A stretch of 64,000 nt of DNA from Escherichia coli (GTDB lineage: Bacteria > Pseudomonadota > Gammaproteobacteria > Enterobacterales > Enterobacteriaceae). The notes beneath the pieces were generated by a model. The model was not told the origin of the DNA, did not search any database, and was given only the letters and a program-made list of their open reading frames with translations. The DNA lies in the NCBI RefSeq assembly GCF_003991155.1, contig NZ_CP031293.1; one strand, written 5' to 3'. Each line of letters opens with the position of its first letter. Position 1 is the stretch's first letter. The position numbers were made by a program, and so were the translations under genes. This document shows positions 47,207 to 62,672 of this stretch, one piece after another.

Positions 47207-47307
47207 ATGCCGGATGCGGCGCGAACGCCTTATCCGGCCTACAAAAGTTTGCAAATTCAATAAATTGCAGAATTCATGTAGGCCTGATAAGCGAAGCGCA
47301 TCAGGCA
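47207..47307. repeat. BIME: two REP elements in inverted orientation (sbp-pfkA spacer)
   Basis: gccggatgcggcgcgaacgccttatccggcctaca and its inverted partner tgtaggcctgataagcgaagcgcatcaggcat, separated by an AT-rich linker. Confidence 0.8.
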
Positions 47308-48505: not shown

Positions 48506-49408
48506 TTATGAAAGCATAGACCGTTTACCCTCCCTGGGTACGACGGAACAGGGGTCCTGATGGATAATCACATCCGATCCCGGAAAACGCCGTAAAATAG
48601 CCTGCTCTACCTGATCCGCCACCATATGTGCCTGAACCAAAGGCAGAGAGTCTTCCATTTCCAAATGAATCTGAATAAAGCGGGTCGGCCCTGACTGCCG
48701 CGTGCGAAGATCGTGAGCGCCGCTAACACCCGGCCAGGAAGTCACGATATCAATAATTTCTTGCCGTTCCTCATCAGGTAATGCGCGATCCAGTAATGAC
48801 TGTACCGCCTCATATCCCATGCGTAACGCGCTATATAAAATATAGATGCCGATTCCCAATGCAAACAGAGCATCGGCGCGATGCCAGCCGTACCAGGACA
48901 ACCCCAGCGCCAGCAGAATTGCGCCGTTCATCATAACATCAGACTGGTAATGTAGCATATCAGCCCGCACCGCCTGGCTTTGCGTCCGGCGCACCACCCA
49001 ACGCTGAAACGAGACAAGGATAATCGTACAAATTAGCGCCACAATTGTCACGATAACCCCGACGCCTGGATCTGTCATCGGCGTTGGAGATACCAGATGT
49101 TGAATACCTGTCAAAAACAGGAATAGTGCCGAACCGGAGATAAACATACTTTGCGCCAGCGCCGCGAGGGACTCAGCTTTACCGTGACCAAACGAGTGAT
49201 TATCGTCGGCAGGTTGCAGGGAATATCGCACCACCAATAAATTCGTCAACGACGCGCCGATATCCACCAGCGAATCCACCAGCGCGGCGAGAATACTCAC
49301 CGACCCGGTATACCACCATGCAAAAATTTTAATCAGCAATAGCAGCGAAGCCATCGCCGTCGCAGCAATCGCCGCCCGACTGACCAGCCGTCCATAAGAT
49401 TGATTCAT
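48506..49408 (-). CDS. fieF: Cation-diffusion facilitator (Fe/Zn efflux) FieF
   Basis: 300 aa from [25 protein letters not shown]; the track ORF is extended by 14 codons. Confidence 0.93.
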
Positions 49409-49492
49409 AAATACTCCCGCTATCAACTGACGGTAGTATAACGGAAGCAAATCATCTGCAATGCATTAAGCAGCAGGCAAATTGAGGATAAA

Positions 49493-49556
49493 AAAAACCC
49501 CCACATCATGTGGGGGAAGACAGGGATGGTGTCTATGGCAAGGAAAACAGGGTTTA
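49493..49556 (-). ncRNA. cpxQ: cpxP 3'UTR with intrinsic terminator; location of the 3'UTR-derived sRNA CpxQ
   Basis: On the minus strand, directly after the cpxP stop, a hairpin cccccacatgatgtggggg is followed by a U-run; placement matches the described CpxQ sRNA processed from the cpxP mRNA 3' end. Confidence 0.55.
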
Positions 49557-50057
49557 CTACTGGGAACGTGAGTTGCTACTACTCAATAGCTTCAACGATG
49601 AACTTTTTTGCCATTGCGTCACGTCACGCAACTGCTCCATTCGTTGTTGATGTTTCTCATTTAAAACCGCTTGCTGCTCCGGCGTTAACAGGCGATACAT
49701 TTGGTTGCGGACTTTTGCCATCTCAACCTGACGAGCAATTTGCTCATTCGCCATTTTTTCTGCCTGTGCGCGCACAGCGTTTTCATCAAAATTTTCTGCG
49801 GTGACAAGGCGATGCATTGTCTCCAGTTCGCTAACATTAACAGGAGGCTGTTCGTGCCGGGCCTGTTGCATAAGATCTCGCATCTGCTGACGCTGATGTT
49901 CGGTTAAACTTATGCCGTCGAACATATGGCTCTGCGTACTGCGCTGCGTAAGTTCTTCACCCGGATGCCAGTTATCGCCTGAACCGACTTCAGCAGCGTG
50001 GCTTAATGAACTGACTGCCAGCGTTGAGGCCATGACGGCAGCGGTAACTATGCGCAT
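49557..50057 (-). CDS. cpxP: Periplasmic Cpx-pathway adaptor/inhibitor CpxP
   Basis: 166 aa from [21 protein letters not shown]; two LTxxQ motifs. Confidence 0.94.
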
Positions 50058-50134
50058 CATTTGCTCCCAAAATCTTTCTGTCGCGATTCAACGATAGAGA
50101 GTTTACGATTCAGGCTGCAAACATGCGTCAGGGG

Positions 50135-50153
50135 GTGTAAAACAACGTAAAGT
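50135..50153. promoter_or_regulatory. CpxR-P binding box (GTAAA-N5-GTAAA) in the cpxP/cpxRA divergent promoter region
   Basis: gtaaaacaacgtaaa at 50137-50151 matches the CpxR consensus direct repeat. Confidence 0.7.
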
Positions 50154-50206
50154 CATGGATTAGCGACGTCTGATGACGTAATTTCTGCCTCGGAGGTATT
50201 TAAACA

Positions 50207-50905
50207 ATGAATAAAATCCTGTTAGTTGATGATGACCGAGAGCTGACTTCCCTATTAAAGGAGCTGCTCGAGATGGAAGGCTTCAACGTGATTGTTGCCC
50301 ACGATGGGGAACAGGCGCTTGATCTTCTGGACGACAGCATTGATTTACTTTTGCTTGATGTAATGATGCCGAAGAAAAATGGTATCGACACATTAAAAGC
50401 ACTTCGCCAGACACACCAGACGCCTGTCATTATGTTGACGGCGCGCGGCAGTGAACTTGATCGCGTTCTCGGCCTTGAGCTGGGCGCAGATGACTATCTC
50501 CCGAAACCGTTTAATGATCGTGAGCTGGTGGCACGTATTCGCGCGATCCTGCGCCGTTCGCACTGGAGCGAGCAACAGCAAAACAACGACAACGGTTCAC
50601 CAACGCTTGAAGTTGATGCCTTAGTGCTGAATCCAGGCCGTCAGGAAGCCAGCTTCGACGGGCAAACGCTGGAGTTAACCGGTACTGAGTTTACCCTGCT
50701 CTACTTACTGGCACAGCATCTGGGTCAAGTGGTTTCCCGTGAGCATTTAAGCCAGGAAGTGCTGGGCAAGCGCCTGACGCCTTTCGACCGCGCTATTGAT
50801 ATGCACATTTCCAACCTGCGTCGTAAACTGCCGGATCGTAAAGATGGTCATCCGTGGTTTAAAACCTTGCGTGGTCGCGGCTATTTGATGGTTTCTGCTT
50901 CATGA
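50207..50905 (+). CDS. cpxR: Two-component response regulator CpxR (OmpR family)
   Basis: 232 aa ORF starting MNKILLVDDDRELTSLLKELLEMEGF; receiver plus winged-helix domains. Confidence 0.96.
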   Translation: MNKILLVDDDRELTSLLKELLEMEGFNVIVAHDGEQALDLLDDSIDLLLLDVMMPKKNGIDTLKALRQTHQTPVIMLTARGSELDRVLGLELGADDYLPKPFNDRELVARIRAILRRSHWSEQQQNNDNGSPTLEVDALVLNPGRQEASFDGQTLELTGTEFTLLYLLAQHLGQVVSREHLSQEVLGKRLTPFDRAIDMHISNLRRKLPDRKDGHPWFKTLRGRGYLMVSAS

Positions 50906-52275
50906 TAGGCAGCTTAACCGCGCGCATCTTCGCCATATTCTGGCTGACGCTGGCGCTGGTGTTGATGTTGGTTTTGATGTTACCCAAGCTCGATTCACGC
51001 CAGATGACCGAGCTTCTGGATAGCGAACAGCGTCAGGGTCTGATGATTGAGCAGCATGTCGAAGCGGAGCTGGCGAACGATCCGCCCAATGATTTAATGT
51101 GGTGGCGGCGTCTGTTCCGGGCGATTGATAAGTGGGCACCGCCAGGACAGCGTTTGTTATTGGTGACCACCGAAGGCCGCGTGATCGGCGCTGAACGCAG
51201 CGAAATGCAGATCATTCGTAACTTTATTGGTCAGGCCGATAACGCCGATCATCCGCAGAAGAAAAAGTATGGCCGCGTGGAACTGGTCGGTCCGTTCTCC
51301 GTGCGTGATGGCGAAGATAATTACCAACTTTATCTGATTCGTCCGGCCAGCAGTTCTCAATCCGATTTCATTAACTTACTGTTTGACCGCCCGCTATTAC
51401 TGCTGATTGTCACCATGTTGGTCAGTACGCCGCTGCTGTTGTGGTTGGCCTGGAGTCTGGCAAAACCGGCGCGTAAGCTGAAAAACGCTGCCGATGAAGT
51501 TGCCCAGGGAAACTTACGCCAGCACCCGGAACTGGAAGCGGGGCCACAGGAATTCCTTGCCGCAGGTGCCAGTTTTAACCAGATGGTCACCGCGCTGGAG
51601 CGCATGATGACCTCTCAGCAGCGTCTGCTTTCTGATATCTCTCACGAGCTGCGCACCCCGCTGACGCGTCTACAACTGGGTACGGCGTTACTGCGCCGTC
51701 GTAGCGGTGAAAGCAAGGAACTGGAGCGTATTGAAACCGAAGCGCAACGTCTGGACAGCATGATTAACGACCTGTTGGTGATGTCACGTAATCAGCAAAA
51801 AAACGCGCTGGTTAGCGAGACCATCAAAGCCAATCAGTTGTGGAGTGAAGTGCTGGATAACGCGGCGTTCGAAGCCGAGCAGATGGGCAAGTCGTTGACG
51901 GTTAACTTCCCGCCTGGGCCGTGGCCGCTGTACGGCAATCCGAACGCCCTGGAAAGTGCGCTGGAAAACATTGTTCGAAATGCTCTGCGTTATTCCCATA
52001 CGAAGATTGAAGTGGGCTTTGCGGTAGATAAAGACGGTATCACCATTACGGTGGACGACGATGGTCCTGGCGTTAGCCCGGAAGATCGCGAACAGATTTT
52101 CCGTCCGTTCTATCGTACCGATGAAGCACGCGATCGTGAATCTGGCGGTACAGGTTTGGGGCTGGCGATTGTTGAAACCGCCATTCAGCAGCATCGTGGC
52201 TGGGTTAAAGCAGAAGACAGCCCGCTGGGTGGTTTACGGCTGGTGATTTGGTTGCCGCTGTATAAGCGGAGTTAA
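50902..52275 (+). CDS. cpxA: Sensor histidine kinase CpxA
   Basis: 457 aa; H-box SHELRTPLTR; overlaps the cpxR stop by 4 bp. Confidence 0.96.
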   Translation: MIGSLTARIFAIFWLTLALVLMLVLMLPKLDSRQMTELLDSEQRQGLMIEQHVEAELANDPPNDLMWWRRLFRAIDKWAPPGQRLLLVTTEGRVIGAERSEMQIIRNFIGQADNADHPQKKKYGRVELVGPFSVRDGEDNYQLYLIRPASSSQSDFINLLFDRPLLLLIVTMLVSTPLLLWLAWSLAKPARKLKNAADEVAQGNLRQHPELEAGPQEFLAAGASFNQMVTALERMMTSQQRLLSDISHELRTPLTRLQLGTALLRRRSGESKELERIETEAQRLDSMINDLLVMSRNQQKNALVSETIKANQLWSEVLDNAAFEAEQMGKSLTVNFPPGPWPLYGNPNALESALENIVRNALRYSHTKIEVGFAVDKDGITITVDDDGPGVSPEDREQIFRPFYRTDEARDRESGGTGLGLAIVETAIQQHRGWVKAEDSPLGGLRLVIWLPLYKRS

Positions 52276-52282
52276 ACTCCGC

Positions 52283-53560
<1,278 letters not shown>

Positions 53561-62439: not shown

Positions 62440-62672
62440 CGGATGCGGCACAAGTGCCTTATCCGGCCTACGGGTCGGCAATAGTTGTAGGCCTGATAAG
62501 ACGCGACAGCGTCGCATCAGGCATTGATTGCCGGATGCGGCACGAGCGCCATATCCGGCCTACGGGTCGGCAATAGTTGTAGGCCTGATAAGACGCGACA
62601 GCGTCGCATCAGGCATTGATTGCCGGATGCGGCACGAGTGCCTTATCCGGCCTACAGATCGTACATCCGGCA
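62440..62672. repeat. Tandem REP/BIME array in the rhaA-rhaD spacer (about 98 bp unit repeated)
   Basis: Unit ccggatgcggcacNagNgccNtatccggcctacgggtcggcaatagttgtaggcctgataagacgcgacagcgtcgcatcaggcattgattg occurs twice in tandem with a third partial copy. Confidence 0.8.

Follow-up and report, generated by a model that had tools for sequence, protein, structure and literature searches.

The stretch of Escherichia coli DNA analysed here (64 kb in its whole length, and referred to as the window) carries the Cpx genes in the order cpxA-cpxR (plus strand, 50207-52275), cpxP and fieF (both on the minus strand), followed by pfkA. Just past the stop codon of cpxP (TAG, 49559-49557, minus strand) lies a segment of 58 nt, 49547 to 49490 on the minus strand, which we identify with high confidence as cpxQ, the gene of the already known CpxQ sRNA of the cpxP 3' UTR. 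The coordinates of this gene, of its parts and of its neighbors are collected in Table 1. At the 5' end of cpxP two ATG codons are found adjacent and in frame (MMRIV..., 50055-50060, minus strand); the start used in K-12 is the second one, which gives a protein of 166 residues.

Table 1. Features of the cpxA-cpxR-cpxP-cpxQ-fieF region of the window.
Feature	Position	Strand	Description or basis
CpxR box	50137-50151	+	GTAAAACAACGTAAA, GTAAA-N5-GTAAA; divergent cpxP/cpxRA control region
cpxR	50207-50905	+	ORF; CpxR identical to K-12 in 232/232 aa
cpxA	50902-52275	+	ORF; CpxA identical to K-12 in 457/457 aa
cpxP CDS	49557-50057	-	166 aa plus stop, parental mRNA of CpxQ; ORF and K-12 record
Linker, cpxP stop codon to CpxQ 5' end	49548-49556	-	UAAACCCUG; 9 nt, identical to K-12
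cpxQ, mature sRNA	49490-49547	-	58 nt, UUUUCCUUGCCAUAGACACCAUCCCUGUCUUCCCCCACAUGAUGUGGGGGUUUUUUUU; mapped from K-12 ncRNA cpxQ b4716
5' single-stranded seed, CpxQ nt 1-14	49534-49547	-	UUUUCCUUGCCAUA; unpaired in the MFE fold
Small internal hairpin, CpxQ nt 14-30	49518-49534	-	AGACA/UGUCU, 7-nt loop; MFE and RNAalifold consensus
C/U-rich second pairing region (probable), CpxQ nt 22-34	49514-49526	-	UCCCUGUCUUCCC; predicted cfa duplex
Terminator hairpin	49498-49516	-	CCCCCACA-UGA-UGUGGGGG, 8 bp, 3-nt loop; fold and terminator scan
Loop-apex SNP	49506	-	A here, C in K-12; sole cpxQ difference from K-12
U8 tail	49490-49497	-	With the hairpin, intrinsic terminator of cpxP and 3' Hfq-binding module (Hfq role from the literature)
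attB core of WPhi-type P2-like phages	49487-49533	-	47 nt, CpxQ nt 15-58 plus AUC; 47/47 phage/host identity
fieF	48506-49408	-	Native downstream neighbor, directly after cpxQ

Identity of the locus with cpxQ of K-12

In the curated annotation of K-12 MG1655, cpxQ (b4716; NC_000913.3, 4106330-4106387) is 58 nt long and starts 10 nt past the last base of the stop codon of cpxP. Alignment of this gene with the window gives 57 identical positions out of 58, which confirms the proposal, made in an earlier note on this DNA, that the region is the CpxQ locus. Locus, strand, length and processing context are those of the K-12 gene (EcoGene b4716), and the processing region, the 5' seed, the internal hairpin, the terminator stem and the U8 tail are all identical in the two sequences; the only difference, A in place of C at the apex of the terminator loop, leaves both the predicted fold and its energy unchanged. 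The earlier note had named beforehand a divergence in the processing site or in the seed as the observation that would speak against CpxQ. None is present, and since both regions are identical to K-12 the identification is not refuted. The strong terminator (hairpin plus U-run on the minus strand) that had been described is likewise found, at 49516-49490. The proposed boundaries were less exact: the interval 49493-49556 falls on the right element, but it takes in 9 nt ahead of the processing site and misses the last 3 U, and the distance of roughly 60 nt given from stop codon to terminator corresponds in reality to the whole sRNA with its terminator, whereas only about 40 nt separate the stop codon from the hairpin. 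From the alignment, the predicted coordinates of cpxQ are corrected here to 49490-49547 on the minus strand.

The surrounding sequence is also very close to that of K-12. Over 776 aligned nt, which include the start of cpxR, cpxP, cpxQ and the region upstream of fieF, only 2 bases differ; cpxP has a single synonymous SNP (AAT/AAC), and the CpxP protein (166 aa) is 100% identical. The 77-nt allele of the window is found as an exact match in 4105 of 5426 complete E. coli genome records, while an exact match to the K-12 allele is found in 894; thus the window carries the common form of cpxQ in E. coli, and its loop base is the commoner allele. Overall, cpxQ of the window strain is intact and ordinary, a well-described sRNA gene and not a new one.

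Fold of the RNA and predicted pairing with its targets

The minimum free energy of the 58-nt RNA is -17.4 kcal/mol (z = -2.7 with respect to shuffled sequences), and the corresponding fold consists of a single-stranded 5' end of about 13-14 nt, a 5-bp hairpin and the terminator. In the stem of the latter 6 of the 8 pairs are GC, and the U8 that follows makes of it, by sequence, an Hfq-type 3' module; this site (49516-49498) is the only terminator-like one on the minus strand between 49300 and 50300.

Toward nhaB and cfa it is the 5' end of CpxQ that acts as seed (PMC6755755), and the RNA represses nhaB, skp, agp, ydjN and fimA, as well as cfa (PMC9438474, PMC6755755). In E. coli CpxQ lowers the level of Skp, and OMPs are thereby kept from being misdirected into the inner membrane (PMC4817254); the regulation of nhaB is conserved in the same species, and the half-life of CpxQ is longer than 16 min (PMC10250213). 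We have calculated duplexes between CpxQ of the window and the target sequences of K-12 (the target genes of the strain itself lie outside the window), with shuffled seeds as a control, and all three published sites considered were recovered: nt 3-22 are predicted to pair with the coding sequence of nhaB at +295..+315 (published site at ~+312), nt 2-14 with the Shine-Dalgarno region of skp at -17..-5, and a bipartite site is predicted far upstream in the 5' UTR of cfa (nt 3-12 with -135..-126, nt 24-33 with -176..-167; E = -28.4 kcal/mol). The cfa duplex, which is equalled by 1 of 200 shuffled seeds, is the only one that stands out; over such long target windows shuffled seeds do as well in energy as the nhaB and skp duplexes. 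Judging from these duplexes, the C/U-rich stretch of nt 22-34 probably acts as a second pairing region. The boundaries of the seeds (R1/R2) used here are based on secondary papers and on our own duplex predictions.

Conservation across the Enterobacterales

The conservation of the locus was studied by scanning one genome per species with a pattern anchored in the 5' seed, which returned at least 120 loci. The pattern fixes 20 conserved bases, and for this reason unbiased evidence comes only from the positions that it leaves unconstrained (nt 1-4, nt 13-21 and the terminator); cpxP loci without the motif are outside the sample. Among the matches listed, 118 are true loci from species of the Enterobacterales, with genera that include Citrobacter, Klebsiella, Enterobacter, Pantoea, Erwinia, Serratia, Rahnella, Hafnia, Edwardsiella, Photorhabdus, Tatumella and Rosenbergiella. 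A homologue of CpxP is encoded directly upstream, on the same strand, in 113 of these 118 listed loci (41-98% aa identity), and in the other 5 there is too little upstream sequence to judge. Two further matches, one in a Bacteroidales MAG (L030) and one at L117, have neither cpxP nor a terminator in their context and were discarded as chance matches.

In 109 of the loci among the matches listed CpxQ nt 1-32 are on average 98.5% identical to E. coli, and the terminator 87.9%; the corresponding values for the flanks of the same 109 loci are 66.8% (last 90 nt of the cpxP coding sequence) and 56.9% (60 nt downstream). In the species alignment of the matches listed the unconstrained nt 1-4 and 13-21 are almost invariant, the seed (nt 1-14) is invariant across the order, and most of the 89 aligned sequences have CCCUG with a U-run behind it. 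The terminator stem covaries: 4 of its 8 pairs change on both sides in the alignment of 89 sequences from the matches listed, with 67 cells showing changes on both sides versus 22 in shuffled alignments. None of 500 shuffles reaches 67, and the signal collapses when the partners are slid. The 5 pairs of the internal hairpin are all invariant in the 88 distinct sequences among the matches listed, so that covariation neither supports nor contradicts this element. The overall pattern is that of a seed acting in trans, constrained in its primary sequence, to which a terminator constrained in its structure is attached; the species scan agrees with the literature, where the 3' UTR is described as the best conserved portion of cpxP (PMC9438474).

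According to a different view, the segment would be nothing else than a passive 3' UTR of cpxP closed by an intrinsic terminator, with no function as a trans-acting RNA, and a strong terminator is indeed expected after any highly induced monocistronic gene. This view appears very unlikely to be correct, because a passive UTR would not keep the 32 nt ahead of the hairpin ~98.5% identical while, among the matches listed, the coding sequence falls to 41% aa identity and the flanks to 57-67%. In a passive UTR one would also not expect the stem of the terminator to vary and the unpaired part to stay constant, and a stable regulator of 58 nt has been demonstrated by direct experiment in E. coli and Salmonella (PMC4817254, PMC9438474, PMC6755755, PMC10250213).

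Overlap with the attachment site of WPhi-type phages

A BLAST search that returned more places than records drew attention to an att site at this locus: CpxQ nt 15-58 and the AUC that follows are the 47-nt core of the attB site of WPhi-type P2-like phages (Table 1). An exact copy of the 47 nt is found in WPhi (AY135739.1/AJ245959.1) and in dozens of Peduovirus records with Escherichia, Salmonella and Yersinia hosts. The 47-nt identity, at 88.6 min, is said to have been described by Liu and Haggard-Ljungquist in 1999. In E. coli W the WPhi1 prophage occupies 'cpxP-fieF', beside P2-type prophages at the sRNA genes rybB and cyaR (PMC3032704), and the logic of the latter sites is the same, as the phage carries the 3' end of the sRNA gene and integration restores the gene. 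The window has this same cpxP-fieF site, with the same 47-nt identity, but here attB is empty, as can be recognized from the presence of a single copy of the core in the entire 64 kb and of fieF directly downstream.

When attB, attL, attR and attP are aligned, the core is seen to be duplicated at the two ends of the prophage, with cpxP-cpxQ intact at attL and the native leader of fieF after attR. As an example, in E. coli strain 20 a P2-like prophage lies right after the terminator of cpxQ, in the order attL, int ... ogr, attR, fieF. As CpxQ nt 15-58 are brought in by the phage, a complete cpxQ is formed anew at attL upon integration. Of 5425 complete E. coli genomes, 4590 have an uninterrupted match to a symmetric probe of 167 nt, and in the other 835 (15.4%) the match is broken exactly at the end of the core. 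Among the matches listed, a homologous integrase is found directly downstream at 12 of 111 species loci of other genera.

Two side observations concern the downstream region and the phages. At 23 of the listed species loci (L019, L088, L122 and ~20 more) neither fieF nor a WPhi-type integrase is found downstream of cpxQ, and ~7 have too little downstream sequence; at some of these 23 loci the terminator is immediately followed by a phage-like ATCA..CTTAC, pointing to integrases of a more divergent kind, or to insertions of another type, at this site. One of the matches, L002 (NZ_JBQJRQ010000002.1; 32,330 bp), is labelled 'plasmid unnamed3' of E. coli 2020N21-246-1 but is the circular genome of a P2-like phage, with genes for an integrase, Cox, Ogr/Delta, gpD and the tail sheath; beside the integrase it has 45 nt identical to the 3' part of CpxQ (the attP core).

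The overlap could be taken to mean that the conservation of the locus derives mainly from phage attachment, either by selection on the att core or by homogenisation through integration and excision, and not from the function of the sRNA. The 47 nt are carried identically by many phages of three host genera, the site is occupied in 15% of the E. coli genomes and in 12 of the 111 listed species genomes, and the loop allele of the window is the phage allele: the SNP lies inside the core, and 55 of the 62 phage records at 99% identity or more match the window sequence, with its A, exactly. Against these points it must be considered that CpxQ nt 1-14 are outside the phage-borne core and equally invariant, and that the stem, inside the core, is the most variable part and has compensatory changes, the opposite of what homogenisation would produce; on these grounds homogenisation by phages was rejected as the cause of the conservation. 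The host, moreover, gains nothing by preserving a landing site for phages, and causation usually runs the other way, with phages targeting the conserved ends of RNA genes, as at the rybB, cyaR, ssrA and tRNA sites (PMC3032704). Thus, we consider it very improbable that phage attachment is what has kept the sequence constant. The landing site of WPhi-type phages, whose overlap with cpxQ is seen directly in the alignment, is apparently the most invariant small-RNA sequence of the Enterobacterales.

It is tempting to speculate that the phage copy (attP, or attR in lysogens) might be transcribed, and might act as a partial mimic of CpxQ or as an Hfq decoy that alters the Cpx response of the host to inner-membrane stress, although we give this idea little chance. 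The phage-borne nt 15-58 comprise the second C/U-rich pairing region and the Hfq-binding terminator, with the 5' seed absent. A function of the phage copy as RNA is made unlikely both by this absence and by the fact that ogr of WPhi has a terminator-like hairpin of its own. In WPhi (AY135739.1; L125, 1390-1500) ogr is followed by this hairpin, GCCCCTCAGTTGAGGGGC, and a T-run, ~85 nt before the CpxQ-derived core, whose terminator is the second in tandem after the ogr hairpin and faces int. The notion that the core terminator serves as the terminator of ogr was downgraded, as the stop codon of ogr is directly followed by a hairpin and T-run that belong to ogr itself. A search of the literature retrieved no paper tying CpxQ to attB, to an integrase or to P2-like phages; the one match for CpxQ together with integrase was a lambda-att cloning vector.

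Processing from the cpxP mRNA

CpxQ is released from the cpxP transcript by an RNase E cut close to the stop codon; Hfq makes this cut sharper and shields the product (PMC9438474), which is seen on Northern blots of E. coli as an RNA of 58 nt (PMC6755755). In the window the upstream half of the processing site, CCCUG↓UUUU, is carried by the linker UAAACCCUG. With the cut at the annotated 5' end (G↓UUUU), the RNase E motif RN↓WUU is matched only at +1 to +3; the match becomes complete if the cut is moved 1 nt further 3', where many species have one extra U. The logic of this biogenesis (a parental mRNA, RNase E and Hfq) is shared with SdhX, SroC, NarS and other sRNAs that RNase E processes from 3' UTRs (PMC9438474). 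These differ from CpxQ in their genes and regulons, and CpxQ comes instead from a monocistronic, stress-induced mRNA.

Some 3'-UTR sRNAs, for example MicL, have internal promoters according to the literature, and in the same way CpxQ could be a primary transcript started from its own promoter inside the 3' end of cpxP. The RNA that has been published is, however, a 5'-monophosphate product of RNase E that depends on the cpxP promoter (PMC9438474, PMC6755755, PMC10250213), which makes an internal start extremely unlikely. A promoter scan of 49300-50300 also found no sigma-70-like site, although this is weak evidence against an internal promoter because the known cpxP promoter was missed as well.

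The Hrs1 family of Rfam and the annotation of cpxQ

Rfam 15 has no family for CpxQ, and no match in the cpxQ region reaches the gathering threshold; at a permissive threshold one recovers just weak matches driven by the terminator and a reversed match to Hrs1. This last one (RF02628, E = 1.2e-7) is the best sub-threshold match, with 44.5 bits versus a gathering threshold of 56.4, and it runs along 49490-49562 on the plus strand, antisense to cpxP. With such a score, and with the strand opposite to cpxP, CpxQ of the window does not reach the threshold of RF02628 on the strand of the RNA. Elsewhere in the window, matches above threshold were found for naRNA4 (CssrE; REP-type repeats) at 52289-52366 (+), just downstream of cpxA, 62490-62560 (-) and 62582-62652 (-), for ES036 (CssrF) near pfkA at 47244-47285 (+), for the ClpQY (hslVU) promoter element at 32062-32119 (+), and for the L31 ribosomal protein leader at 27398-27450 (-).

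Hrs1 of Erwinia amylovora was described as an Hfq-dependent RNA of 74 nt, located between cpxP and fieF on their same strand ('> > >') and ending in a Rho-independent terminator (PMC4070566). The consensus of RF02628, on the other hand, opens with A7 and a GC hairpin, that is, with a reverse-complemented terminator, and the matches above threshold (69-83 bits) that the family has in four Erwinia species (L032, L033, L074, L081) are all antisense to cpxP/cpxQ. Since the consensus is reversed, the matches are opposite to cpxP and hrs1 was published on the cpxP strand, RF02628 has been modelled on the wrong strand. Once the consensus is reverse-complemented, it aligns with CpxQ through CCUUGCCA...UCCCUGUCU...terminator. 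Location and strand, Hfq dependence and the intrinsic terminator are common to the two RNAs, while Hrs1 differs in its annotated length and in having been described as Erwinia-specific; judged by synteny and sequence, Hrs1 (Zeng and Sundin 2014) is the orthologue of CpxQ. A literature search found no paper that names both CpxQ and Hrs1.

A separate plus-strand RNA, antisense to the 3' end of cpxP, is what the orientation of the best Rfam match would call for, but it has next to no chance of being real, as that match is below threshold and due to a reversed consensus, and is likewise opposite to cpxP in four Erwinia species, while hrs1 was published on the strand of cpxP (PMC4070566). The plus strand also folds no better than shuffled sequences (z = -1.6), and no promoter-like site was found in the scan of 49300-50300. 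Two plus-strand ORFs (49508-49804, 98 aa; 49510-49650, 46 aa) were set aside as mechanical ORFs antisense to a conserved coding sequence and to the sRNA.

As RF02628 was seeded only from Erwinia-like sequences in the opposite orientation, CpxQ of E. coli falls below threshold and on the wrong strand. Complete E. coli genomes annotated by PGAP have no cpxQ feature, and the curated K-12 MG1655 record is the only one of those examined in which it is annotated; because Rfam has no usable family, PGAP leaves cpxQ without annotation in RefSeq genomes by the thousand. This gap would be closed by a CpxQ family on the sense strand, for which the species alignment can serve as the basis.

The Cpx regulatory module

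The CpxR box that the earlier note had placed upstream of cpxP at 50137-50151 is present and identical to K-12, as is the entire intergenic region between cpxP and cpxR. The pattern GTAAA-N5-GTAAA is matched only once in the 64-kb window, versus 0.12 matches expected by chance; it is the established consensus of the CpxR box (De Wulf et al. 2002, as cited in PMC4817254). As CpxP, CpxR and CpxA are also all identical to their K-12 counterparts, the statement that the Cpx module is complete in this strain holds at the level of sequence. The predicted expression of CpxQ from the cpxP promoter under the control of CpxR is in agreement with this sequence, and, given the identity with strains that have been studied experimentally, the window strain would be expected to express and process the RNA.

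Discussion

These observations can be placed in the framework of a mechanism, known for the most part from the literature, in which envelope stress would act through CpxA to produce phosphorylated CpxR, whose binding to the box at 50137-50151 would activate the cpxP promoter. The monocistronic cpxP mRNA would stop at the intrinsic terminator (49516-49490), and RNase E, aided by Hfq, would cut it ~10 nt past the stop codon at CCCUG↓UUUU, freeing a stable 58-nt RNA with a 5'-monophosphate, to be gripped by Hfq via the terminator hairpin and the U-tail. The seed (nt 1-14) and, as we infer, probably also the C/U-rich nt 22-34 would then pair with mRNAs such as those of nhaB, skp, cfa, agp, ydjN and fimA, and this pairing would block translation or promote decay by RNase E, with a lower load on the inner membrane as the final outcome.

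With cpxQ confirmed in the window, one more E. coli strain is seen to have this textbook 3'-UTR sRNA, together with its regulatory module, in intact form. The by-products of the analysis (the overlap of cpxQ with the WPhi attB and its occupancy, the reversed Rfam family, the annotation gap) are housekeeping observations and not discoveries. In practical terms, prophage callers and pangenome studies should regard cpxP-fieF as an integration hotspot at an sRNA gene, occupied in ~15% of complete E. coli genomes, and the deletion or tagging of cpxQ removes or alters the attB site of a phage.
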